A stretch of 64,000 bases of DNA, taken from an uncultured Thermodesulfobacteriota bacterium (lineage in GTDB: Bacteria > Desulfobacterota > BSN033 > WVXP01). The translations under genes were made by a program, and so were the position numbers. Positions 3,020 through 63,075 of this stretch are shown one piece after another. The notes under the pieces are model-generated. The model had not been told where the DNA came from, made no database searches, and was given only the letters and a program-made list of their open reading frames with translations. The stretch lies in assembly GCA_964347335.1 (NCBI GenBank), contig CAYFYO010000003.1:6180-70179 (forward strand), read 5' to 3'. Every line of letters starts with the position of its first letter. Position 1 is the first letter of the stretch.

Positions 3020-3639
3020 GCGTATTTTTAGCTTCGAGGTTAGAGACTTCCGCTCACCATTCCAAGATCCTCTTTTTCAAACCGACCGAGCCTGCAATCG
3101 TCGTGAATCTCCAGAATTCCTGAATCAGCCGGGCGAGGCGTGATCCGCGGTCTGATCTCAACCCTCTACGACGCTTCCGGTGAAATTATTGGAGTTTCCG
3201 GATTTTTTGGTTTCTCGCCTAACGAATATTCGCCCAACTTCCTCTGAGCCCTCCTTCAAATGTTTTGGTTCACAAACCTTCGAGATAAGGGAAAAGGAGT
3301 GTAGCGACACTCGGAATCGGATTTTTTGCACTTATCTCAATTCATGAAAGCGCATGAAGTCCGTTTCTCCATCTCTCGCAGAACGCGCTGAGATCTCTGA
3401 GTCTTGACCTGAATCGCTGAGCGGGTGAGAGAGAGTGTGGTCGGGCATTGTCCTGAAAAGCCAATATGAAGACATCTGATGCATCCGGATTCGTTATCTC
3501 ACCCATGGCGCGTTTTTTCAGATAACTCCAGTGAAATTATGGTTGATTTTTGGATTTTGGTTGCTAGAATTGATAGAGTCGAAGGCGGCCACATTCTCGG
3601 GAGCCACAGCTCAAGAGTCAGTTTTGGATTGGGGGTATC

Positions 3640-6682: not shown

Positions 6683-6905
6683 CTCAGTCCTTCCGGCGTA
6701 TTCACCGAGAGACAAATTGAAGGAGCCGGCAAATAGGGCGTCTCTCTGCCTGTCCTTTCCATACCGCCGGAGGCGGTAGCACGCATTTCATTGGGCCCCC
6801 CTGCCCAATGGAGATCTTCCCTCCTCGGCGGCCTCTGTTTCTCTGCGGGAGAGTCATTCCCGATCTGGGATAGGTTGCAAATTCACTCCGATTGAGGACT
6901 CATCG

Positions 6906-9479
6906 GTGGATCAAAGGATCGATCAGATTTTTCCCCTCGTATCTTGCCCAGCCCGTTACATGGGTGGGGAAAAGAATGCCGTCCAGAGGCCTTCTGACCA
7001 CGTCGAACTCCGGGTTGCCCTCGCCTTTCCCGATGTTTACGAGGTGGCCATGTCTCATGTGGGATTGGATATTCTGTACAACATCCTGAATCGAAGAGAG
7101 AATACTATCGCCGAACGGGTTTTCGCCCCATGGCCCGATATGGAAGGTCACATGAGGGCCAGAGGGATCCCTCTCGTAACACTCGAATCCTCTCGCCCCC
7201 TGCGGGATTTCGATGTTGTCGGCTTTTCACTCCAGTACGAACTCAGTTACACCAACCTTTTGAACATGCTCGATCTTGCTGGAATTCCCGTCTACGCCCG
7301 AACCCGTGGTGACGAATTTCCACTCGTGATCGCCGGTGGACCCAGCACGACTAATCCCGAGCCTATCGCAGACTTCTTGGATGCCGCCGTGATTGGAGAG
7401 GGCGAGGAGGTCATTTTGGAGATCTGCGATCGTGTCATCGAAGGAAAAAAGAATGGACGATCAAAAGCATCCCTGTTAGACGAACTCTCGCAGATCGAGG
7501 GGGTTTACGTCCCCTCCCTTTTCCATGTGGACTACCATAAGAACGGGAAGGTCAAGAGGATCGTTCCCCTTCGGGAGGATTACGGTCATGTCAGGAGAAG
7601 GATTGTTCACGATCTCAATAATATCTCCTATCCGACCGATCCCGTCGTGCCATGGTTGAAAGCAATCCATGACCGGCTGAGTGTTGAAATCGCCCGTGGA
7701 TGCAAGCGGGGCTGTCGATTTTGTCATGCGGGGTATATTTATCGCCCGTACCGCGAGCGAAGACCGGAAATCATCGAGGATATCATCAGAAAATCGCTTG
7801 ACACAACGGGCTACGAAGAGCTCTCTTTCCTCTCCCTCAGCACTGGAGACTATGGGGACATCGAGACCCTTCTCGCCAGGGTCATGGACCATTGTCAGAG
7901 AGGAAATGTGGCCCTTTCCTTTCCATCCCTTCGGGTGGAGACGCTAAACTCGGAGATGGTCCAGCAGATCAAAAGGGTTCGAAAAACAGGATTCACTTTG
8001 GCTCCGGAGGCAGCGACAGAGAGGCTGAGGCGGGTCATCAACAAGGAAATGGACGAGGAGAATCTGCTCGAGACAGCGAGAACGATTTACCACCATGGCT
8101 GGAACCTCATCAAACTCTACTTTATGATTGGCCTCCCGACCGAAACCGATGACGACGTGAGGGAGATGATTCATCTGGCCGAAAAGGTTCTCAAACAGGG
8201 CAAAGGGCTTAAGAGGCCCCCCCGCCTCAATGTGAGCGTATCGACCTTTGTGCCGAAACCCCATACCCCTTTCCAATGGGAACCCCAATTCACGCTGCCA
8301 GAGATACGTCTCAGACAGGAACTGCTTCAGAAAGGATTGAACTCTGGGAGAATCCGGTTCAAGTGGCATGACCCTAGGATGAGCCTTTTGGAGGGAGCAT
8401 TCTCCCGGGGCGGCAGGGAATTGTTTCGAGTCATTCACGATGCATGGCAAATGGGGTGCCGATTCGATGGCTGGAGCGAGTCTTTCAATTGGAAACGCTG
8501 GCTGAAAGCCTTTGAGAGGAATGGCATTGCCATCGATGCTTACACCCGACGCAGGGGGTTTTCTGAAATCCTCCCATGGAGCCATATTAAGTGCGGGGTT
8601 ACCGAGGGGTTTCTCAGAAATGAATGGGAGCGGTCCAGGGGGGAAGCCGGAACGCCTTCGTGTCGGACGGCGTGCACGGCATGTGGGATATGTGATGGAA
8701 AAGAAACCGCGGTGGTCTCTTGGAAGAAGCGCGAGAACCCTCCCGTCTCGACGATGCCCGTCCGAAAAAAAGGGGAGAAACCCATCACCCTCATCTTGGA
8801 ATTCGAGAAAGCAGGCCCTGCCAGGTTCCTGGGCCATCTCGACATGGCGAGAGCATTTCATCGTGCTGCGAGACGAGCGCGCATTCCCCTTCGATATTCC
8901 CAGGGCTTCCATCCTGCCCCCAGGATAAGTTTTGAAAGCGCTTTGGCCCTTGGCCTGGAGAGTCTGTGCGAGAAGATGAAATGGCAACTCGACATCCCCG
9001 TAGCCGATGAGTTGCTCCTGGCCGGAGTGAATCGGGAACTGCCTCCGGGACTCCACATCAAGCGACTCCTCCATGTCGGAGGAAAGCACCGTTTTGTCGG
9101 AGGAGCCGAGATGTGGTATCGGTACCTCGTGGCATTTCCCGAGGGTGTGTCGATGAGGCTTCAAAATCGGGTTCAGGAGTTCCTTGCGAGTGACCGATGG
9201 ATCGTGTCATGGGATGGGAAAGAACAGGAATATAACATCCGGCCCCATTTCGAATCGGTGATCCTTGCCAATGCGGTCTCTCTTGACGAATCTGTGATGG
9301 ATGTCTGGGCCGACCTTATCTGCGAGAAGGCGGGCTTTCTGGAAGTCATATTTCATCGAAGAGACAACATGAAGATTCGGATTGACAGAGCCCTCAGCAC
9401 AATGCTGTCTCTATCTGAGGAAACGAGGAGCCAGATCAGAATTCTCAAACTCGATGGGGCGAGCGCTCATGGTCGCTGA
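6906..9479 (+). CDS. radical SAM protein, B12-binding/rSAM domain fused to DUF2344-like C-terminal domain (TIGR03960/TIGR03936-type)
   Basis: GTG start; CxxxCxxC motif ARGCKRGCRFC; MGGEKN N-terminus; classic partner of RNase E/G genes; 857 aa. Confidence 0.8.
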   Translation: MDQRIDQIFPLVSCPARYMGGEKNAVQRPSDHVELRVALAFPDVYEVAMSHVGLDILYNILNRRENTIAERVFAPWPDMEGHMRARGIPLVTLESSRPLRDFDVVGFSLQYELSYTNLLNMLDLAGIPVYARTRGDEFPLVIAGGPSTTNPEPIADFLDAAVIGEGEEVILEICDRVIEGKKNGRSKASLLDELSQIEGVYVPSLFHVDYHKNGKVKRIVPLREDYGHVRRRIVHDLNNISYPTDPVVPWLKAIHDRLSVEIARGCKRGCRFCHAGYIYRPYRERRPEIIEDIIRKSLDTTGYEELSFLSLSTGDYGDIETLLARVMDHCQRGNVALSFPSLRVETLNSEMVQQIKRVRKTGFTLAPEAATERLRRVINKEMDEENLLETARTIYHHGWNLIKLYFMIGLPTETDDDVREMIHLAEKVLKQGKGLKRPPRLNVSVSTFVPKPHTPFQWEPQFTLPEIRLRQELLQKGLNSGRIRFKWHDPRMSLLEGAFSRGGRELFRVIHDAWQMGCRFDGWSESFNWKRWLKAFERNGIAIDAYTRRRGFSEILPWSHIKCGVTEGFLRNEWERSRGEAGTPSCRTACTACGICDGKETAVVSWKKRENPPVSTMPVRKKGEKPITLILEFEKAGPARFLGHLDMARAFHRAARRARIPLRYSQGFHPAPRISFESALALGLESLCEKMKWQLDIPVADELLLAGVNRELPPGLHIKRLLHVGGKHRFVGGAEMWYRYLVAFPEGVSMRLQNRVQEFLASDRWIVSWDGKEQEYNIRPHFESVILANAVSLDESVMDVWADLICEKAGFLEVIFHRRDNMKIRIDRALSTMLSLSEETRSQIRILKLDGASAHGR

Positions 9480-10986
9480 GCTTATTATGAATGCCTCTTT
9501 GGAGGAAACCCGGGTAGCCCTCATTGAGGGGGGCACGGTTGTGGAAGTCCATATCGAGAGAAACAAAGATCGGAGCATTGTGGGGAACATTTATCGGGGC
9601 AGAACGGTGAAGGTTCTTCCGGGCATGCAGGCGGCCTTCGTGGATATCGGCCTGGAGCGCGCGGCCTTTCTGTATGTTTCGGATGCCTATAGCAGCATCA
9701 AGGAGTATTCTCAAATGTTGAATGAGGGTTTTGAGGATCAAGATGCGCTTGAGCTTCAGTCTCCCCATCCCTCCTTCATCGAATCTGTGCAGATTGAAGA
9801 CGTCGTTCGCGAGGGCCAAGAACTTCTCGTCCAGGTTTCTCGGGAGCCTCTAGGAACCAAGGGGACCCGAATCACTTCCCATATCAGCCTTCCGGGACGA
9901 TACCTTGTCTTCATGCCAACGGTGGATCACATTGGGGTTTCGAGACGAATCAGAGACGAGTCCGAAAGGCATCGGTTGAGGGATATTGTACTCGCTGTCA
10001 GACCTCCAGGTGCAGGATTCATCGTCAGGACAGCCAGTGAAGGGGCCCATGAAGAAGAATTCCGGAATGATATGGAAATGCTGACAAAAATTTGGGAAAA
10101 CGTTCAGCGCAAAAATGACGGGGCGCCGACTCCCAGCCTGATTCACAGCGATCACGACATGGTTCTGAGGGCGATCCGGGATCTGATTACACCGGATGTA
10201 AAGCGTGTGGTCATCGATTCAGCAGAGGACTACGAAAGGATAATTCATTTTGTCGAGACCTATATGCCTCGCATAAAATGCGACATCGATCTCTATACGG
10301 GGAGGACCCCAATCTTCGATGCCCACGGCATCGAAACAGAGCTAGACAAAGCTCTGAAGCGCAAGGTCTGGCTGAAGTCTGGTGGACACATCCTCATCGA
10401 GATGACAGAGGCACTGACGGCCATTGACGTGAATACAGGCAAATTCGTCGGGAAGAGGAATCTCGAAGAGACAATACTGAAAACCAACCTCGAGGCCGCC
10501 AAGGAAATTGCTTATCAGCTTCGTTTGAGAGATATCGGCGGTATCATTATCATCGATTTCATTGACATGGAGAAAGATTCGAATCGGGAAATGGTTCATC
10601 AGGCTCTCGAACTCGCCTTAGCAAAGGATCGCACCAAATCGAATATTTCGAAAATATCCGAGTTAGGGCTCGTTGAGATGACTCGGAAAAGAACGAGAGA
10701 GAATCTTAGCCAGCTCTTGGGAGAGACCTGTCCCCATTGTGAGGGGCTTGGATATGTGAAGTCGAAGACAACGATTTGCTATGAGATTTTTAGAGAAATC
10801 GAACGAATCTCCTCCGATCTTGGCGGCGATACAGTTATGGTCGACGTCAATCCTGAAGTTGCCGAGATGCTTTGCGACGAGGAAAGAGCAGGCATAGAAC
10901 ACCTCGAAAGGAAGTTAGGTAAGAGAATCGTCGTGCAGGAGATACCTCGCTTCGAGCAGAGTGAATTTGAGATTGTGGACGTGTGA
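9469..10986 (+). CDS. rng: ribonuclease G (Rne/Rng family, S1 domain)
   Basis: MVAELIMNASLEETRVALIEGG...GNIYRGRTVKVLPGMQAAFVDIGLERAAFLYVSD aligns with the E. coli RNase G N-terminus; ATG overlaps the upstream stop by 11 nt. Confidence 0.9.
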   Translation: MVAELIMNASLEETRVALIEGGTVVEVHIERNKDRSIVGNIYRGRTVKVLPGMQAAFVDIGLERAAFLYVSDAYSSIKEYSQMLNEGFEDQDALELQSPHPSFIESVQIEDVVREGQELLVQVSREPLGTKGTRITSHISLPGRYLVFMPTVDHIGVSRRIRDESERHRLRDIVLAVRPPGAGFIVRTASEGAHEEEFRNDMEMLTKIWENVQRKNDGAPTPSLIHSDHDMVLRAIRDLITPDVKRVVIDSAEDYERIIHFVETYMPRIKCDIDLYTGRTPIFDAHGIETELDKALKRKVWLKSGGHILIEMTEALTAIDVNTGKFVGKRNLEETILKTNLEAAKEIAYQLRLRDIGGIIIIDFIDMEKDSNREMVHQALELALAKDRTKSNISKISELGLVEMTRKRTRENLSQLLGETCPHCEGLGYVKSKTTICYEIFREIERISSDLGGDTVMVDVNPEVAEMLCDEERAGIEHLERKLGKRIVVQEIPRFEQSEFEIVDV

Positions 10987-11030
10987 GGTTCACCCGATCG
11001 GATTTCACAGATCCTCCCCCAGCAGGACGA

Positions 11031-11320
11031 GGGAAAAAGGGGTAAGGAGGGGAACTCCGAACAAGCATTTGTTATTTGTCATTCGTTATTTGTTCCTTGT
11101 TATTTGTCATTTGGCACTTAACCCTCAGTCTCTCGTCTCCAGTCTCTAACCTTAGTCTCTAGCCTCTATTCTCTAATCTGTGGGCTCTAATCTCTGATCT
11201 CAACTCTCTACTCTCTCGTCTATGGCCTCTCGTCTCTGGCCTTTATCCTTGAACCTTTATCCTCTGACCCATGAGCCGGCCCCACGGCTTTCGCAAAGTC
11301 CCTCAGGGACAAAAGGATAT
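11031..11320 (+). repeat. intergenic heptanucleotide tandem-repeat element, copy 1
   Basis: About 34 consecutive degenerate 7-mers in one register (gggaaaa|aggggta|...|catttgt|tatttgt|...|tctctcg|tctccag|...|ctttatc|cttgaac|ctttatc|ctctgac), then conserved hairpin gtccctcagggac; homologous to copies at 19386 and 24030. Confidence 0.8.
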
Positions 11321-11352
11321 CTGAAACTCGAGAAATTGTTTCGAGTCGAACA

Positions 11353-11381
11353 TTGACTTTTCACGGGAAATGGCTTATTTT
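11353..11381 (+). promoter_or_regulatory. sigma70-like promoter for the rplU operon
   Basis: TTGACT-17 nt-TATTTT, 37 bp upstream of the rplU ATG. Confidence 0.5.
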
Positions 11382-15494: not shown

Positions 15495-15583
15495 GGGCCG
15501 TTCCGCAAAGACTTATGATCATAATGGGCGAACACCAAAAACTCAGGAAACTCCGCTGAAATACCAGGAAAGGGAGGGTCACG

Positions 15584-18514: not shown

Positions 18515-19199
18515 TTTCATATTCCCTCCAAGATGCCCACTGTGTTCCTCTCAGACTGAGTCACCCGACTCCCATTCTCTTTGCCCATCCTGCTTCTCAG
18601 AGGTCACCTTTATCGGCCCACCCTTTTGCATCAAATGTGGCATCCCTTTTGCTTCCCCAGCCGACGAAAGTCACCTCTGTGGACGGTGTCTGTCCCGGGC
18701 GGGTGCCTACACCATGGCGAGATCTCTCTGTGCGTTTTCTGGTTCCATCAAAGCCTCGATTCATGCCTTTAAGTATCAAAACAAAACATACCTGGCCAAG
18801 GCTTTGGTCGGCCTTATCGAAAAAAGCCCTCTCCCCATTCGGATCGATCCATATGATCGACTCGTGCCCGTTCCGCTTCACAGGAATCGCCTGAGGCATC
18901 GGGGCTATAACCAGTGCCTCCTCCTCGCCAGTGAAATTTCCCGTCGGTACCGTACGCCCATGGATAATCGCCTATTGAAGAGAATCCGAGATTCCGTCCC
19001 ACAGGTCGAACTCGCTGGGTCCAAGAGGGAGAGGAATGTGAAGGGCGCATTCTCTCTCGCGGGAGATCCCGCTGACAGTAGCGTCCTCCTCGTCGATGAC
19101 GTCTTTACAACCGGTGCCACGGTGGATGAATGCGCGAGGGTGTTGCTCAAGGGAGGGGCCAAGAGGGTAGACGTGCTCACCGTTGCCAGGACGCTGTAA
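18486..19199 (+). CDS. comF: ComF-family phosphoribosyltransferase-domain protein
   Basis: N-terminal Cys pairs (CPLC, CPSC, CIKC, CGRC) and PRTase motif VLLVDDVFTTGAT; ATG 18486 overlaps the lapB-like stop. Confidence 0.7.
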   Translation: MKVPIKALTDFIFPPRCPLCSSQTESPDSHSLCPSCFSEVTFIGPPFCIKCGIPFASPADESHLCGRCLSRAGAYTMARSLCAFSGSIKASIHAFKYQNKTYLAKALVGLIEKSPLPIRIDPYDRLVPVPLHRNRLRHRGYNQCLLLASEISRRYRTPMDNRLLKRIRDSVPQVELAGSKRERNVKGAFSLAGDPADSSVLLVDDVFTTGATVDECARVLLKGGAKRVDVLTVARTL

Positions 19200-19385
19200 T
19201 TTCCCAACCCGATGTCTATGACGATGAAGCCTTTAAAGTTTCCAGGGTATTACATGATCAATGATCGGCACGGCTTGAATGTCCCAATGATTTCGATTTC
19301 TCCTGGTAAACTCCATTGTCTCTTCCACTCGGACGCTCCCGCTGTGACCCTCTCTGGCTTCGTACACTCTCCTGTAGGAGGTCAA

Positions 19386-19470
19386 AGGAAAAAGGGGAAA
19401 GGAGCAAGGAGAACCCGAACAGACCTGAGTCCTCTCGCTTTATCCTTGAACCTCTATCCTCTGACCCATG
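19386..19470 (+). repeat. heptanucleotide-repeat element, short derivative (copy 2)
   Basis: ggaaaaaggggaaaggagcaagg...ctttatccttgaacctctatcctctgaccc matches both ends of copy 1 but lacks the long internal array; followed by GC hairpin cccgccgcaggcggg. Confidence 0.7.
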
Positions 19471-19644
19471 TTGGTGCCCCATCCCGCCGCAGGCGGGATC
19501 GCTCACGGACCATGGAGTTCACCAGAAACTAGGGAAACTTCGGTTTCACCTTTATTGATACTAAAGGGAGAGCCGCGAACTGTCGAAAAGACTGTTGGGG
19601 GATGAAGCAAGATTTTTCAGAGCACGAAGAGGGAAGGATTATCA

Positions 19645-22290
19645 TTGAGAAAGCGGACAATCAATCTTATCCTCTCCATCATCTGTCTCTTTTTCATATT
19701 TCTCACACTGACTCCTCTCCTGCTGAGCTACTATATGGGCCCTAAGCTCACGCGAAGGGTCTTAGAAGAGCAGATTGAACATCTTCTCCAAAAGAAGGTC
19801 GAGGTCGGGCAGTCGGGGATCAATATTTTCGGAGGATTTGGTGTCGAATACAAGAACGTCAGAATCGTCGGGACCGAGGGGGAGGAGTTCTTTCGAGCCG
19901 ATGCATTTGTGCTCAAGCCATGGATTCAGTCTCTCATACTGGGGAGACTGAGGTGGAAGAGTCTCATTCTGAAGAGCCCCTCGATTCGCGCCACCAGGTC
20001 GTCGGATGGGCGCATCGATTTCTACCACAAAGGAGGGAAAGGGCCAAAAGGCACGGGTACAGAAATCTTTCAAGGCCTCAAAGATATCGCGACCTTACTT
20101 CCCACTCGGATCATTATCCGAGGCGGGAGGATCAGTTTCACGGATTTGGCCGTTTCAGAAAAGCCCGTTGTGACAGAGATCGAAGCCGTGGAGCTATCAG
20201 CCGAGGACATCTCGTCTGCAAAGCCCTTGTCCTTTGAGCTTAGCGGTCGGTTCACGGGAGACCTGAAAGAGACGTTTGCCATCTCCGGTCAGATAAGCCT
20301 TCCAAGGGAGCCAAGCAATCCGAAACCAATGGAGTTTGCCATCTCTCTGAAAGCCGACGGGGTCAATTCACAGCGGATATGGCCGTATGTTCGCAAAGCC
20401 GCTCCTTTTCAAGAGATCGGCGGACGCTTGGATCTCAAGGTCAAGCACCGGGGAGGACTGAAGGCCTTCCACTCATCCGGGGAGATGGTCATCCGGAATG
20501 GCCGAATCGGTATCCCCTCACTTTACACGGCTCCTATCGAGCCCAGTGAGGTTGCGCTTGCCTACGATCTCGAATTTGGAAACGAAGAGATTTATGCCTC
20601 TTCTGTGAGTGTCCGCACACCAAGCGCTTCTTTCCACGGGACGGTCTTGATCGAAAAAAGCACCAGCCCTAATCCATATGTCTCCATCGACCTCAAGAGT
20701 GGGAGGAGCTCTCTCAAGGCGATCACACCTTTCTTGCCGGACAGGCTCGTCCCGAAAAAACTTCTCTCTTTTCTTACTGACGCTGGAATCCGGGGGTCCG
20801 TCGAGATCGAAGAGGCTCGTCTCGATGGACCCTGGGACAAGATCAATTCAGAGGGTCTCCATAAGAATCCTGAAATGCTCTCTCTCCGGATGCATATGGA
20901 TAAGTGGAGTTTTTTCCTCGATCCGAAATTTCCCATTCTTCGAAATGTTTCCGGAACTGTCACCGTGCGGGGAGATCAGGTCGCCATCGAGGGCTTTCAT
21001 GCGCAGTTCCTCCAGACACGACTCGTCGACTTGAGCGGGTCCATTTCCCGAGTCTTTTCCCGCCCTCGAATCGCATTGGCTTATGAGGCAGATGTTGATC
21101 TTAAGGGGCTCGCCTCTCTCCTGAAAGCGAACAAAACACCCGAGAAGATCCGAAGGGCCCTCGACCCGATCAGCAAGGTTTCCGGTCGGGCCAATATGGC
21201 TGGCACGATCCGATATCTGTTCAACAAGCCGACCGGCCTGACGTACAAGGGCAAAGTCACCCTCAAACGGGGCCGTCTGGCAATCGCCGGTATCCCTCCC
21301 TTAACGGATCTGGAGGGTGAAATTCGGTACGATGAAAAAGAGATCCTCCTGTCTCATCTCAAATGGAGGATCGGAAAGGGTGTCTACCAAGGGAAGGCTT
21401 CTATTCTCGGTTATTTGACAAAGCTCAAGAATAGACTCACCCTGTCCAAGAGAATGCGGATCTCCTTTGACCTGGGAGCCGAGGAAATTCACTTCGATCG
21501 TTTTTTCCCAGCAGGTCGAAAGAAGCGAGACATTCAGATCGACCCGAAATCGATCTGGGTAAATTCCACCGTTACGGGAAAAATGAGAATTTCCCGAGGC
21601 TGGCTCAGAGGGGTTCACCTGGGGAACCTGAAAGCGACTTTTGTCCTGAAGCGCGGCCTCCTGAGATTTAGGAGATTGCAGGCGGAGGCACCGGGAGGAT
21701 TCTTCAGATGCAGGGGATGGGTCAATCTGAGACGTAAACCAGGGTTATCTTTCAAGTTGATCCCGGAGATCCATCATTTGAGCATGACCGAGGTGATTCC
21801 CATATTTCTTGATCATCAGAAAGAACCAATGATAACTGGAAAACTAGATCTGGACGGAATCATCACGGGCCGCGGCGGCTCTGCTGAGGGGATCAGGAAG
21901 TCTCTCAGCGGAGATCTCCGGGTTCGCGTTGGGGAGGGTCGCATACACGGGCTTGAAGGGTTCAAAGGAGATGAGCTTTCTTACAATAGGGCAACCGGCC
22001 AGATCGCAATTCAAGGAGGAGTCGCCTCGACGAGAGACCTCTCCTTGGACAGCGATGCCATGAGCATGGCTATCAAGGGCCAGGCAGACCTGAATAACCA
22101 GAGGCTAGACCTCTCTATCGGGGTTCGTCCGCTTCAGAAAACGGATAAGGTCCTCAGCAACGTCCCCCTTGCCGGATGGCTTCTCGCCGGCAGGGATCGG
22201 AGCATTCTCACCTTTGGTTTCAGAGTCCGAGGCACATTCAATGAACTGCGCGTTGAACCTCGCGAGACTCGGACGGAGGAGAATCCGTAG
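19645..22290 (+). CDS. AsmA-family outer-membrane assembly protein
   Basis: N-terminal TM anchor, AsmA-like N-terminus (VEYKNVRI...KSPSIRATRSSDGRIDF), large beta-rich periplasmic body, 881 aa; TTG start. Confidence 0.7.
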   Translation: MRKRTINLILSIICLFFIFLTLTPLLLSYYMGPKLTRRVLEEQIEHLLQKKVEVGQSGINIFGGFGVEYKNVRIVGTEGEEFFRADAFVLKPWIQSLILGRLRWKSLILKSPSIRATRSSDGRIDFYHKGGKGPKGTGTEIFQGLKDIATLLPTRIIIRGGRISFTDLAVSEKPVVTEIEAVELSAEDISSAKPLSFELSGRFTGDLKETFAISGQISLPREPSNPKPMEFAISLKADGVNSQRIWPYVRKAAPFQEIGGRLDLKVKHRGGLKAFHSSGEMVIRNGRIGIPSLYTAPIEPSEVALAYDLEFGNEEIYASSVSVRTPSASFHGTVLIEKSTSPNPYVSIDLKSGRSSLKAITPFLPDRLVPKKLLSFLTDAGIRGSVEIEEARLDGPWDKINSEGLHKNPEMLSLRMHMDKWSFFLDPKFPILRNVSGTVTVRGDQVAIEGFHAQFLQTRLVDLSGSISRVFSRPRIALAYEADVDLKGLASLLKANKTPEKIRRALDPISKVSGRANMAGTIRYLFNKPTGLTYKGKVTLKRGRLAIAGIPPLTDLEGEIRYDEKEILLSHLKWRIGKGVYQGKASILGYLTKLKNRLTLSKRMRISFDLGAEEIHFDRFFPAGRKKRDIQIDPKSIWVNSTVTGKMRISRGWLRGVHLGNLKATFVLKRGLLRFRRLQAEAPGGFFRCRGWVNLRRKPGLSFKLIPEIHHLSMTEVIPIFLDHQKEPMITGKLDLDGIITGRGGSAEGIRKSLSGDLRVRVGEGRIHGLEGFKGDELSYNRATGQIAIQGGVASTRDLSLDSDAMSMAIKGQADLNNQRLDLSIGVRPLQKTDKVLSNVPLAGWLLAGRDRSILTFGFRVRGTFNELRVEPRETRTEENP

Positions 22291-23917: not shown

Positions 23918-24029
23918 TCGCCCTCCCACACCCTCACATCCGTGGCGTTATCCCTGATCAGATTGTATTTGGAAGGACCCCTGAAAACCTTAAGCGTGAA
24001 AGACTTCTGGGGATTTTCCCCAGTTTTGT

Positions 24030-24300
24030 GGACGCTCATGTCCCCGAGGGACGTTTGCGGAAGCGGTGGGATTCTCAGAAAGACTGGAGACCGGAGACTG
24101 GAGACGAGAGACTAGAGATTAAAGACTGGAGACGAGAGACTACAGATTAAAGGCTAGCGGCTAAAGGCTAAGGCCAAATAGCCAATAACCAATACCCAAT
24201 GACCGATAACAAATAACTGATGACCAGTAACAAGTAACCAATAACAAACGCTCGTTAGGAGTGCATTTCCTTGAACCTTTTGCCCTTTTCCTTGATCCTG
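24030..24300 (-). repeat. intergenic heptanucleotide tandem-repeat element, inverted copy 3
   Basis: On the plus strand about 25 phased 7-mers (cggagac|tggagac|gagagac|...|caataac|...) are the reverse-complement classes of copy 1; flank gtccccgagggacgtttgcggaag is the reverse-complement homolog of the copy-1 3' flank. Confidence 0.8.
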
Positions 24301-24708
24301 CGAGAGCAGAGTCTGTGAGCCCCGAGAGGGTCAACGCGAGAGCAAGGGAGCGAAGGGATATGGGCGTTCCATCTGAAGATCCAAGATTCTTTGAAGCATC
24401 AAGAGGTTAGAAACTTCTTGCTTTGAAAACTCAGGAAACTCCAAAAGGCTTCTTCGTTGACAACGCCTTCCAAAATCGTTACCCTTGAATTCCAGGGAGG
24501 GCATAATCATGTCAGAGGCCGCGGCTTTGCCATATGACCTGGCCCTCCAGGATACCAAGAAGTGTCATCCTTCCCTATTGGAACCGCCTTCTAGGCGCAT
24601 ATCCCGATCCCCCCCTGGAAAAACTCAGCCACGAGGTGAGGACTCTTCGGATCCATGCATGAGAATCATCCCTGGAGGGTGAAGCGTATTGAGAAGAGCA
24701 AGGGAAGA

Positions 24709-26322
24709 ACGATGAAGAAAATGATGCTAATCAATGCGGCCCAGACCGGCGAATGTCGGGTGGCCATTCTGGAAGATGGAAACCTCGTGCAGCTCAACAT
24801 AGAAACGAGCGGACGAGAGAAATCGAAGGGCAACATATATCACGGCATTGTCACTCACGTCGAGCCGAGTTTCCAGGCCGCCTTCGTTGACTATGGTGGA
24901 AGACGTCATGGTTTTCTCTCCATGTCTGAAATGAATCCCCAAAATTTCGACAAACCGGCTGAAGCGAAAGAGAAACTCCGAATCGAACACTTATTGAAGC
25001 GAGGGCAAAAAATCCCCGTCCAGGTGATAAAGGAAGAGACATCGAACAAGGGGGCAGCGCTGACGACCTATATCTCCCTTCCGGGAAGGTACCTCGTTTT
25101 GATGCCAGGAAGCAAGAGCCATGGCGTGTCTCGGAAGATCGGAGACGAAAAACGGCGAGCAAGGCTTAAGGAGATTGTCAAAGACTTCAAATTGCCTGAG
25201 GGGATGGGCTTTATCGTTCGAACAGCAGGTGTGGACGAGAGCAAAAGGGAACTTTTCAGGGACTGCTCATACCTGTTACGACTGTGGGAAAGTATACAGG
25301 CAAAAATGCAAGAAATCCCCGCACCTTCGCTGCTTTATCAGGAGAGCCATGTCCTTATACAGTCCATCCGAGAGTATTTCACTACGGACATGGAGGTTCT
25401 CGTAGATGACAAAGAAGCCTATCGCGAGGTTAAAGATTTCTTTCGGCAGTTGATGGCTCAATACCAGCGAAGGGTAAAACTCTATCAAGACAAAAGGCCC
25501 CTTTTTGCCGCATTCAACCTGGAAGAGCAGATCGAGGCCATCTACGCTCGCGAAGTTCCTCTGAGATCGGGCGGAAGCATCTCCATCGATCCCACCGAGG
25601 CACTTGTCTCTATCGATGTGAACTCTGGGAGACTCGGAAAGTCCAAGAGCATTGAACAGACAGCCCTCAACACGAATCTGGAGGCGGCAGAGGAAATCGC
25701 CCGACAATTGCGGTTGAGAGATCTGGGTGGGCTCATCGTCATCGATTTCATCGATATGAAGGACCGGAAACACAACATGGAGGTGGAACGCTGCCTTCGC
25801 AATGGGTTAAAGAAGGACAAGGCCAAGACGGATATCTCCCGGATTTCGAAATTTGGGCTCTTAGAGATGTCTCGACAGAGACTCAAGACCCCCCTGGCCG
25901 AAGAGAGCTACAAAGTTTGCTCCTATTGTCGCGGTCGGGGGAGGGTAAAATCCACAGAGTCCGTGGCGCTCGTGGTCTTGCGGAAGATCCTCGAAAGGGT
26001 CATTGAGGGGAACGTGGCCCTCGTCAAAGGGGCGTTCTCAAGGCCCGTGGCGACACACCTTCTCAACCGTAAGCGAAGAGAGATCGCCGAAATCGAAAGG
26101 GAGTTTCATCTTCAAATCTGGTTTACCAGTCAGTGGGAAATGGCCCCAGATGAATACGACCTCGAGTTTCTGACCCGTGAGGAACTCGAAAGGCTCGAGG
26201 AGGGAGAAATCGAAAAGGAAAGGCACCCCCTCGGTTCCAAGTCAATCCCAATACCCTCTTTGCCAAGGTTTGAGGATGATGCGGTCAAGAAACCCTGGTA
26301 TCTAAAGATCCTCAGGCGATGA
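24709..26322 (+). CDS. ribonuclease E/G family protein (second paralog)
   Basis: S1 domain and catalytic-domain homology to Rne/Rng (GNIYHGIVTHVEPSFQAAFVDYG); AAGGGA RBS before ATG 24709; preceded by a roughly 400-nt leader. Confidence 0.85.
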   Translation, partial: TMKKMMLINAAQTGECRVAILEDGNLVQLNIETSGREKSKGNIYHGIVTHVEPSFQAAFVDYGGRRHGFLSMSEMNPQNFDKPAEAKEKLRIEHLLKRGQKIPVQVIKEETSNKGAALTTYISLPGRYLVLMPGSKSHGVSRKIGDEKRRARLKEIVKDFKLPEGMGFIVRTAGVDESKRELFRDCSYLLRLWESIQAKMQEIPAPSLLYQESHVLIQSIREYFTTDMEVLVDDKEAYREVKDFFRQLMAQYQRRVKLYQDKRPLFAAFNLEEQIEAIYAREVPLRSGGSISIDPTEALVSIDVNSGRLGKSKSIEQTALNTNLEAAEEIARQLRLRDLGGLIVIDFIDMKDRKHNMEVERCLRNGLKKDKAKTDISRISKFGLLEMSRQRLKTPLAEESYKVCSYCRGRGRVKSTESVALVVLRKILERVIEGNVALVKGAFSRPVATHLLNRKRREIAEIEREFHLQIWFTSQWEMAPDEYDLEFLTREELERLEEGEIEKERHPLGSKSIPIPSLPRFEDDAVKKPWYLKILRR

Positions 26323-29057: not shown

Positions 29058-29699
29058 CGCCCTTAGGCGAGCTTTCGCGGTGATAGTTATTACAAAAAAC
29101 CCTCGAAAAAATCAATGATCAATGGATGAGGAGTTAGCCCGTTCTTCAATGCAGCGTTGGCCTATGATTTTGATTTTGTTCAAAAATCCAATTTGCGAAG
29201 TGGATTCTCCCATCCCTTCGCTCCCACGCTCTCACGGTGACCCTATGGCGGTTCGCAGGTGGGGAAAGCCTCCCCCTTCCTGCTCACACGCGGCGGGTAC
29301 CCCACCGCTTCCGCTGACGCCGCTCAGGAATAAGAGAATCCGCCACAACTGAGGAAGGTGCTCCCATACTCCTGGTTGACCTCCGAATTTCTGGGACAAC
29401 TCCTCTCGATGGGTCCGAATATCCACAGCCCAGATTCGGAACATCCGAAAATAATATCGGAAATAGTGGATCTGCGGATCTGGAGTTCACCAACATGGTT
29501 CTGGGAGAATATTTTGAAATGTGATTGACTCGAACCGAGAAACCTGGAATCATAATGAATCCAGGACACCCTTGCTGCCCTCAGTGACAATCGAATGAGT
29601 TCCATGAATTCCACCGGGCCAAGCGGCTACCTCGGGGCTTAAGAACCCCTCGGGCAGTTTTCGTCTCAGTCAACATGCTCGGAGGAGGAGAGACCCTCT

Positions 29700-45759: not shown

Positions 45760-46128
45760 TCGCAGATCTCGAGAGTCGAGGAATTGATCTACCTTGCTAT
45801 ATTATATCTTGGCTAGGCCTGTCAAATGCGCTCGAACAGATTTCACAACGAATCGCGTGGGGGGCCCCAATCAATACATGCGAAGCGTGGACGCTTTTGA
45901 TCTGAATCGCCCTCTCAGCGATTCGGGGCGAAACTCAGAGATCTCCGTGTGCTCCGGGAGAGATGGAAACGGGCTTCATGCGCCTGCACGAATTGAGATA
46001 AGTGTAAGAATCTGATTCCAAAAAGTCCGAAAACACCAGACGCTGTCTCCTTGACAAAACCGGGAAGGGTGATTAGTTTTCCGTCCAGCAGGAGATATTG
46101 GACGCTCGGCTCCATTAACGCTCCATTC

Positions 46129-58344: not shown

Positions 58345-58713
58345 GTGAGTCTGTCCGGCCTTTGGATTTCCTGTCGATAATCCCTCTGTCCAAAAGGATC
58401 CATCCTGGAGATCTCCCGCAGCATACTCTCCGAGGCACCGGCGTGAAGGGTGAGCGTCTGATCAATCATCCGCGAACGTCTCTCGGGAATATGAGCATTC
58501 ACGAAAGCCACTGAAATTAAGAATATTTTCGGATGAAGGAACGCTCAAAGGGACCTGGGCCACTGGCCTCTTGGGGGCGACCGAAAAAGTCCGGAAACTC
58601 TTCATCAATCATCCTTGAAAACCCCTCGCCCAAAGAAATATATTGCAAGTTAAAGCCTTCGTCCACGGCCTCAACGTTGGCCTCCCGCCTCAGGCCTTCT
58701 CTCGGGGTTAGCA

Positions 58714-62812: not shown

Positions 62813-62821
62813 CTGAGTCAC

Positions 62822-63075
62822 GAAATGTTTGGGTGTAGGGAAGACGGTGAGAAGCCGTCGCGGACCCGCCGCTGTGAGTGGGGACGAAAGCCACAGAGTG
62901 GGCCACTATTTCGCTCGAGCGGAATGGGAAGGCGTGGTGAGTAGGAGGATCCACGAGCCAGAAAACCTGCCCAAGACGTTGCTCCAAAAACATTCCTCGA
63001 GGGGTGGGAATATGGAGTCGGCGAGGGAAGTCGGTCTGATCGCAATCCGGGGTCAGGCTTTTTTTGTCTTCGAGA
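62822..63075 (+). ncRNA. cobalamin (B12) riboswitch, cis-regulatory leader
   Basis: GGGAAGACGGTGAGAAGCCGTCGCGGACCCGCCGCTGTGAGTGGGGACGAAAGCCACAG core and B12 box GAGCCAGAAAACCTGCCC; T-run GGCTTTTTTTG about 63058-63068. Confidence 0.75.

Follow-up and report, generated by a model that had tools for sequence, protein, structure and literature searches.

The window analysed here is a stretch of 64,000 nucleotides (nt) from an uncultured Thermodesulfobacteriota bacterium of the sulfate-reducer type (contig CAYFYO010000003.1 of assembly GCA_964347335.1), and the segment in question, 19386-19470, lies in the spacer between comF and asmA. It belongs to a dispersed repeat element, of which the window holds four clear copies (copies 1 to 4, with lengths of 235-434 nt), together with a remnant that has lost its interior and two or three fragments. 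They all lie between genes, some in one orientation and some in the other, and code for nothing. The neighbours of the copies are RNase G, rplU, proA, nadD, comF, asmA/yhdP, a NUDIX gene, RNase E/G, IDH, a deacetylase gene, and lexA, all of which are housekeeping genes. The positions of the copies and of their parts are collected in Table 1. The segment 19386-19470 is part of copy 3, and the long-array copies at 11 kb and 24 kb are copies 1 and 2. For comparison, loci of relatives (L numbers) were obtained via ProA and IDH homologues, plus one metagenome pattern scan; their ProA proteins are 77-92% identical to that of the window.

The first-pass annotation of the segment had regarded it as a short derivative of copy 1 that retains only the conserved ends, namely a GA-rich block and a set of CT heptads. 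The sharing of these two blocks was borne out. The 33-nt CT-heptad block CTTTATCCTTGAACCTYTATCCTCTGACCCATG at 19438-19470 is identical to 11241-11273 of copy 1 at 32 of 33 positions. When up to three mismatches were allowed, it matched only at these two sites, and the number expected from 100 dinucleotide shuffles was 0.00. The match grows to 44 nt at 86% identity (D3, repeat finder). The GA-rich block is a period-7 array (AAAGGAG, 4.3 units, 19384-19413) in the output of Tandem Repeats Finder, and it aligns with the GA blocks of both copy 1 and copy 2. In addition, nhmmer with copy 3 as the query matched the 5' part of copy 1 (E=1.7e-4) and the 5' part of copy 2 (E=5.7e-8). The similarity is therefore homology, beyond GA/CT richness, and copy 3 belongs to the same repeat family as the two long-array copies. 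Furthermore, the homology reaches about 150 nt leftward and about 75 nt rightward of the segment, through sequence that is not of low complexity. The end similarity thus held under alignment. A chance resemblance, in which only GA/CT richness would be shared, is refuted by the 32/33 block with its expectation of 0 and by this extended homology, and its probability is practically nil.

The architecture was defined by alignments of eight left arms (A4) and 12 right arms (A5), from end to end. The segment 19386-19470 is the central hairpin region of a complete member of the repeat family, which spans about 310 nt (19235-19542). This means that the GA and CT blocks, which had been taken for the conserved ends, are inner inverted arms lying about 150 nt and about 75 nt inside the true termini. 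Copy 3 is not a shortened copy 1 either: it is a complete member of another subfamily, with a CT arm of four heptads and without an extra array. Copy 3, L001 7160-7401, and L006 1463-1706, which occupy non-orthologous loci in three different genomes, share 76-77% identity over a length of about 245 nt. It is copy 1, not copy 3, that is truncated, the left part of about 110 nt being absent. The CT-arm block of copy 3 is also present in L001 (twice) and in L006/L007. The hairpin cccgccgcaggcggg, which had been described as following the element, sits inside the 3' module of copy 3 (19483-19497); it is common to copy 3 and the L006/L007 copy of another genome, where it shows a single loop change of C to T. 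The stem is followed by ATCGCTCACGG, and a terminator scan of 19150-19700 was empty. Because no T-run follows it, this hairpin is not an intrinsic terminator. It should be mentioned that two open reading frames (ORFs) cross copy 3, one at 19212-19532 on the + strand (106 amino acids) and the other at 19258-19506 on the - strand (82 amino acids); neither is conserved in the homologous copies, which carry frame-breaking indels, and neither merits annotation as a gene.

Table 1. Copies and parts of the repeat element in the window, with related copies and arm pairs at other loci
Feature	Position	Strand	Remarks
Copy 3, left terminal inverted repeat AAAGTTTCCAGGGTATT	19235-19251	+	aligns with left ends of five other copies
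Copy 3, left spacer	19252-19302	+	homologous region in copy 2 and in L088 and L004 copies (A4)
Copy 3, inner inverted repeat, left arm CTGGTAAACTCCATTGTC	19303-19320	+	pairs with 19507-19525; closing stem in minimum-free-energy folds of all copies; RNAalifold stem
Copy 3, 5' module (about 60 nt; ..CGCTCC..GCTCCCG..TGACCCTCT..)	19321-19381	+	invariant columns in A4
Copy 3, GA-heptad arm (AAAGGNN units)	19382-19413	+	Tandem Repeats Finder, alignments
Copy 3, linker	19414-19437	+	site of long heptad array in other copies
Copy 3, CT-heptad arm (CTTTATC CTTGAAC CTCTATC CTCTGAC C)	19438-19466	+	roughly reverse complement of GA arm
Copy 3, 3' module (about 40 nt)	19467-19506	+	includes subfamily hairpin CCCGCCGCAGGCGGG, 19483-19497; A5
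Copy 3, inner inverted repeat, right arm GGACCATGGAGTTCACCAG	19507-19525	+	
Copy 3, right terminal inverted repeat AAACTAGGGAAACTTCG	19526-19542	+	A5; reverse complement matches left-end consensus
Copy 1, RNase G-rplU spacer	10987-11345	+	5'-truncated at RNase G stop codon
Copy 1, GA arm	11029-11066		
Copy 1, 29-heptad array including CT arm	11067-11269		
Copy 1, 3' module	11270-11323		
Copy 1, right terminal repeat	11324-11345		
Copy 2, NUDIX-RNase E/G spacer	24009-24442	-	full length
Copy 2, left and right terminal repeats	24426-24442, 24009-24027		
Copy 2, inner arms	24355-24373, 24028-24045		
Copy 2, GA arm	24250-24295		
Copy 2, about 24 heptads	24081-24249		
Copy 4, IDH-deacetylase divergent spacer	29130-29364	+	nhmmer matches; inverted-repeat pairs I3/I4 with copy 2
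Remnant, proA-nadD spacer	15513-15554	+	outer left part (..GGGCGAACACCA) fused to right terminal repeat AAAACTCAGGAAACTCC (15538-15554); exact 17-mer match; aligned with L001, L002
Degenerate copy or fragment	3191-3320	+	left terminal repeat GGAGTTTCCGGATTTTT (3191-3207); GGTTCACAAACC..GATAAGGGAAAAGGAG (3267-3299); weak, by eye beyond terminal repeat
Fragment	58470-58601	+	3'-module-like CCGCGAACGTCTCTCGGGAATATGAGCATTCAC (58470-58502); right terminal repeat AAAAGTCCGGAAACTCT (58585-58601)
Further copy, L001	2726-2975		orthologue of copy 1
Further copy, L001	7160-7401		
Further copy, L006/L007			
Further copies, L004	18300-18650, 20006-20196		
Further copy, L088	9615-9890		
Further copy, L090	1-102		
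Module-less arm pair, L036	13929-14014		
Module-less arm pair, L068	6483-6574		
Module-less arm pair, L019	6154-6250		between proB and proA
Module-less arm pair, L048	1-100		

The ends of the element are formed by a terminal inverted repeat of about 17 nt with the consensus GGAGTTTCCTGAGTTTT. This sequence is exact at the left end of copy 2 (24426-24442) and, inverted, at the right end of the proA-nadD element in the window, L001, and L002. The 17-mer has five matches in the window, as compared with 0.26 expected. Several variants of the terminal repeat form a hairpin with a T-run pointing into the element. The right terminal repeat of copy 2, read on the + strand, was called as an intrinsic terminator (for the NUDIX gene), and the left end of the L006 copy, CCGAGTTTCCTCGGTTTTT, is also terminator-like. 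Such ends would plausibly terminate the transcription of neighbouring genes, which might favour their retention. In addition, the copies often stand directly upstream of the promoter of the next gene: for the rplU and RNase E promoters, a distance of 13-16 nt separates the -35 hexamers (TTGACT, TTGACA) from the element end upstream of them (11324-11358 and 24426-24462, and the equivalents in L004 and L090). This spacing might result from a preferred site of insertion, or an upstream terminator or insulator may have been selected for.

Inside the terminal repeats there is an inner inverted repeat of about 13-18 bp. Changes on both of its sides are seen in 10 of 13 pairs, and 80.8% of its cells are paired, as compared with 36-42% with slid partners; its covariation score was reached by none of 500 shuffles. 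The span from inner repeat to inner repeat gave folding z scores of -4.2 (+ strand) and -4.7 (- strand) for copy 3, and of -2.8 (+ strand) and -4.1 (- strand) for copy 4. RNA folds of the flagged span or of the arrays alone were no better than those of shuffles (z = -1.4, +0.5, and -0.6). A palindrome extending over the whole element was considered and discarded: the left half and the reverse-complemented right half do not align outside the terminal and inner repeats and the GA/CT arms (109 transversions). The covariation is compatible both with selection on an RNA or single-strand hairpin and with a pair of matched transposon ends.

According to the former of these, the elements would be genes or cis-acting parts of a structured RNA, whose fold, made up of a closing stem, module helices, and the GA/CU hairpin, is selected and whose heptad loop is either tolerated or used as a functional single-stranded extension. 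The pairing that is kept through change and the folds about four standard deviations better than shuffles agree with this model, as do the strongly conserved module cores and the better folding of the reverse strand in six of seven copies. Mismatches in the stem are also G.U-compatible more often on the reverse strand (10, as against 3 on the forward strand, by hand count). However, this asymmetry is small, the copies are not independent, and over the whole element the ratio is 33:23 beside the 109 transversions, so that the assignment of a strand in this way is suggestive only. Covariation of the arms is equally expected of transposon end pairs or of gene conversion between the arms. Furthermore, on neither strand do the copies keep a consistent orientation to the flanking genes, a search inside them gave no convincing promoter or terminator, and deletions erode them freely. 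Within the element there were no sigma-70 promoters beyond chance, the native promoters lying outside. A sigma-54 reading of TGG..N..ATTGT at the start of the 5' module was rejected, for the spacing misses by one in most copies and there is no GC at -12 (by eye). The element has no match in Rfam 15 at the gathering threshold; at E<=5 only chance miRNA hairpins appeared (16-19 bits, where 78-100 are required), and none at copy 4. A tRNA/tmRNA search gave nothing. A structured RNA seems, on balance, unlikely, with a small share of the probability left to it.

The array between the heptad arms is strictly phased at 7 nt and comprises 0 to about 29 units. The array of copy 1 is 203 nt long (29x7), and that of its L001 orthologue, where ProA is 92% identical, is 106 nt long; the copy 2 array has 169 nt, or about 24 heptads. 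Tandem Repeats Finder reported two long period-7 arrays, 11067-11263 and 24081-24245. The skeleton of the array is GTYWYTN, and within a single array the heptads shift from ATTTGTT to TCTCGTC. The 7-nt units follow one another head to tail with no spacers in between, unlike the identical repeats of 24-48 nt in a CRISPR array, and hence these are not CRISPR arrays. A small hydrophobic ORF running through the copy 1 array was rejected, as it has no proper spacing between the start and a Shine-Dalgarno sequence and is not conserved in the other copies.

The GA and CT arms are in inverted orientation, and they share the AAGG/CCTT core motif more than strict complementarity: in the L068 arm pair, the variable positions match at 2 of 10 (hand check). 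Inverted heptad pairs (AAGGNNN/NNNCCTT or GGCNNAA/TTNNGCC) without the flanking modules are also seen in metagenome-assembled genomes (MAGs) of distant Desulfobacterota and Syntrophales. A scan for heptad-arm pairs found 10 in 1.4 Mb and 0 in 20 shuffles, and the 17-mer CCTTGAACCTTTATCCT is identical in the window and in L036, a Syntrophales MAG. These features might be explained if the arms and the array were arrays of protein-binding sites, recognized either by a nucleoid-associated or global regulator on double-stranded DNA or by a single-strand binder of the cold-shock-domain type on the transcript. The GTYWYTN skeleton resembles the consensus GTCTTTG/T of Bacillus CspB (PMC1904285), which is a lead only, as this preference comes from a distant organism. 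Likewise, Geobacter metallireducens carries paired inverted five-fold heptanucleotide repeats, one pair of which stands between proB and proA (PMC2700814), the same position as the L019 pair. On the other hand, arrays at orthologous loci differ in length, from 0 to about 29 units, without apparent consequence, the heptads drift within one array, and a period of 7 bp does not keep phase with the DNA helix and is ill-suited to a simple binder on one face. No protein partner was identified. We consider protein-binding arrays to be quite improbable.

Comparison of orthologous loci in relatives, by which the first-pass annotation had proposed to look for presence/absence polymorphism, revealed such differences. 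The comF-asmA spacer, filled in the window, is empty in L002 and L004. In the same spacer of L090 (9238-9276, - strand), the place that copy 3 takes in the window is occupied by another heptad array, CCTGACA ACTGACC CCTGACA GCCGACA ACTGCAG, similar to the MTYCTGA heptads of G. metallireducens (PMC2700814). In the proA-nadD spacer, L001 has a full short copy, the window has the outer left part and the right terminal repeat, and L002 has the 3' module only. In the NUDIX-RNase E spacer, L004 (ProA 77% identical) has both terminal repeats and the modules, with only CCCACCGGTGGG as the core, whereas the window has the arms and about 24 heptads; in L002 only scraps are left. The center of the IDH element is minimal in the window: copy 4 keeps both terminal repeats, the inner arms, and the modules, and has only the mini hairpin GGTGGGGAAAGCCTCCCCC (29258-29276) between them, as compared with heptad arms of 5+5 units in L088. 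Thus, some copies persist in the same spacer across species divergence and decay by internal deletion. It should be noted that genome collections cover this lineage sparsely: the closest ProA from the species representatives has 66% identity, and exact look-ups of the L21, ProA, and IDH proteins of the window returned no record. A 25-mer of the CT block had no match in the genome-contig collection, and the metagenome scan matched only L006/L007. The 3'-module core had no match in viral contigs, and blastn against plasmids gave none.

The orientation of the interior also differs at two loci. At the IDH-deacetylase spacer, where the elements of the window (29130-29364), L090 (1-102), and L088 (9615-9890) were compared, the window and L090 agree in the junction between the IDH-side terminal repeat and the flank; in the window the interior is directed away from IDH, in L090 and L088 towards it. 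At the NUDIX-RNase E spacer, 14-16 nt separate the junction on the RNase E side from TTGACA in all three of the window, L004, and L090, and the interior is on the - strand in the window (24009-24442) and L004 (20006-20196) and on the + strand in L090 (4950-5041). Conserved junctions with opposite interiors suggest inversion between the terminal repeats, or repeated site-specific insertion. Inversion would be the regular behaviour of an invertible DNA cassette, in which the terminal repeats serve as recombination sites and flipping alters the context of the neighbouring promoter region. However, the differences in orientation are between species and not within a population, and both spacers carry extra element debris, which leaves repeated insertion as an alternative. 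Moreover, no invertase gene is nearby, no promoter was found inside the element, and it is implausible that rplU, RNase E, or IDH would be under phase-variable control. A cassette of this kind is very improbable. A functional role of the heptad core can also be imagined: when single-stranded, as a transcript or an intermediate of replication, the array, with up to about 29 head-to-tail GTYWYTN sites close to the GTCTTTG/T optimum of a cold-shock-domain protein, might be a tunable loading platform or sponge for a single-strand nucleic-acid chaperone, its length setting the dose, while the terminal repeats would let the cassette flip relative to the adjacent promoter, and the arm hairpin in distant Desulfobacterota would mark a conserved, undescribed recognition system. 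This idea is speculative, and we give it little credence.

Taken together, the element is probably a dispersed, non-coding, non-autonomous, modular foldback repeat with a slippage-prone heptad core, resembling a MITE, or miniature inverted-repeat transposable element. Its size of 235-434 nt, under the limit of about 600 bp, and its lack of coding capacity are those of a MITE, the indels between short copies not being multiples of 3. It has terminal inverted repeats, GGAGTTTCCTGAGTTTT at the left ends and inverted at the right ends. It is dispersed, with at least four copies plus remnants in 64 kb and with presence/absence at orthologous sites. The copies would spread by a transposase supplied in trans, and the interior may flip by recombination between the terminal repeats. 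The array would grow and shrink by slipped-strand mispairing, as the first-pass annotation had also suggested; the lengths of orthologous arrays do differ by about multiples of 7, and slippage as such would be the putative mechanism behind this.

Several points weigh against this interpretation. No target-site duplication was found at the filled/empty comparisons (copy 2, copy 3, and their orthologues). Near copy 3 there is a CCTTTA repeat that is displaced by 8 nt on one side, and old insertions may have lost their duplications. Neither a transposase nor an autonomous partner with these terminal repeats turned up in the window, the fetched loci, or the plasmid and viral collections. Because neither a duplication nor a transposase was found, "MITE-like" stays a resemblance: of the MITE-like element with defined termini and a deletable interior proposed at first, the terminal inverted repeats and the variable interior were confirmed, but not the target-site duplication or the cognate transposase. 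The element also differs from classical MITEs in that it has no identified parent insertion sequence and is not AT-rich; the modules are GC-rich, the window has about 52% GC, and in the long arrays AT-richness is confined to the first half. In addition, several copies are old residents at orthologous loci, not recent insertions, and mobility is for this reason inferred only from the non-orthologous similarity and one clean case of presence/absence. The module cores, such as CGCAAAGTCGCTCAGGGAC, are conserved beyond the needs of a decaying selfish element, which could reflect function. Finally, the census of copies covers the 64-kb window and the fetched loci. The element does not fit the REP/BIME type, which consists of clustered, GC-rich imperfect palindromes of 20-40 nt associated with a RAYT transposase, being itself a unit of 235-434 nt with distinct non-palindromic modules and no RAYT-like gene nearby.

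Some further features of the window should be described. The hairpin at 6764, which the first-pass annotation had likened to that of copy 3, exists at 6764-6776 (CCGCCGGAGGCGG), and its relationship to the family is unproven. The pattern CCGCCGGAGGCGG with up to one mismatch has two matches, as compared with 0.36 expected, and two are reached by 7 of 100 shuffles. The flanks of the hairpin are like copy 3 at about 20 of 26 positions, by eye, and none of the nhmmer searches reported the region; 6759-6785 is possibly element debris. An intergenic repeat of about 105 nt occurs at 3323-3428 and, inverted, at 45907-46010 (76-80% complementary; I1/I2), and its 3-kb copy adjoins the fragment at 3191-3320. 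This repeat might belong to a divergent subfamily as its 3' part, or it might be unrelated. In the proA-nadD spacer, a perfect 12-bp palindrome, TTATGATCATAA, stands at 15513-15524, immediately to the left of the element remnant. L001 has an imperfect version (TTATGATAATAA), and a more loosely related sequence is seen upstream of copy 3 (19258-19275); the palindrome may represent an operator or a piece of the left region of the element. The two RNase E/G-family paralogues (9382-10986 and 24655-26322) share a 108-nt stretch at 71% identity (D2), and each of them adjoins one long-array copy, which is probably a coincidence. The sole Rfam match in the window is a full-length cobalamin riboswitch at 62814-62988 on the + strand, with 97.2 bits against a gathering score of 31.5.

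Among known repeats, the Correia elements of Neisseria and the ERIC elements of enterobacteria are alike in being 100-450 nt long and intergenic, in both orientations, with terminal inverted repeats and a rod-like fold. Their ends may be terminator-like, and they are retained, in a decaying state, at orthologous loci. An expandable microsatellite core is not known as a feature of such families. Tandem arrays of heptamers are known from cyanobacteria as STRR heptamers.

The BOX elements of pneumococci, with the structure boxA-boxB(n)-boxC and terminal inverted repeats, are folded, vary in length among strains, and are non-coding and non-autonomous (PMC3049150). They are the closest architectural analogue. 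Both they and the present element are non-autonomous intergenic composites with conserved end modules, a variable tandem interior, and terminal inverted repeats. Both have a strongly base-paired predicted fold, to which the tandem part contributes little, and vary in length at the same locus. However, BOX belongs to another phylum and is not known to share any sequence with the present element; the likeness is architectural only. The internal unit of BOX is about 45 nt long, whereas that of the present element is 7 nt long and drifts along the array. Furthermore, the array here lies within inverted heptad arms, and a second, co-varying inverted repeat is present inside the terminal one. BOX is reported to make a target-site duplication (PMC3049150); none was found here.

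The multicopy sequences of G. metallireducens are the nearest phylogenetic precedent. They are paired, oppositely oriented tandem octa- or heptanucleotides of classes 1-3, class 3 being MTYCTGA in five copies, and their authors read them as sites for an IHF/HU-type regulator (PMC2700814). Like the arms described above, they come from the former Deltaproteobacteria, lie in intergenic regions, and consist of three to five tandem units of 7-8 nt, which face a set on the opposite strand at variable distance (PMC2700814). They differ in their heptad sequences, and neither conserved flanking modules nor terminal repeats are described for them (PMC2700814). In G. bemidjiensis, multicopy sequences are found in 12% of intergenic regions (PMC2996986). 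TAACTGA arrays of Beggiatoaceae, Cyanobacteria, and Bacteroidetes, for which single-strand binders of the S1, Csp, or CsrA type have been proposed as readers, are also intergenic and composed of 7-nt units in up to tens of copies; they are, however, almost perfect repetitions of one heptamer, in most cases immediately upstream of start codons, and have neither modules nor inverted arms (PMC4679880). As compared with such pure heptamer arrays, the heptads described here are degenerate and embedded in a foldback element.

The presence of this family explains a set of odd low-complexity stretches in the genome and has consequences for annotation. The arrays are prone to assembly error and variable in length, ORFs across them (for example, 19212-19532) are spurious and should not be taken for genes, and the terminal repeats may be mistaken for terminators, or serve as such. 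The relatives show persistence of the terminal repeats and module cores, with churn of the heptad core and of the orientation. The element is a well-dissected modular foldback repeat from an uncultured member of the Desulfobacterota, and it provides a link to the unexplained paired heptanucleotide elements that were described from Geobacter in 2009. If the heptad arms are protein-recognition sites, they would give a handle on a so far unknown regulator shared across the phylum.

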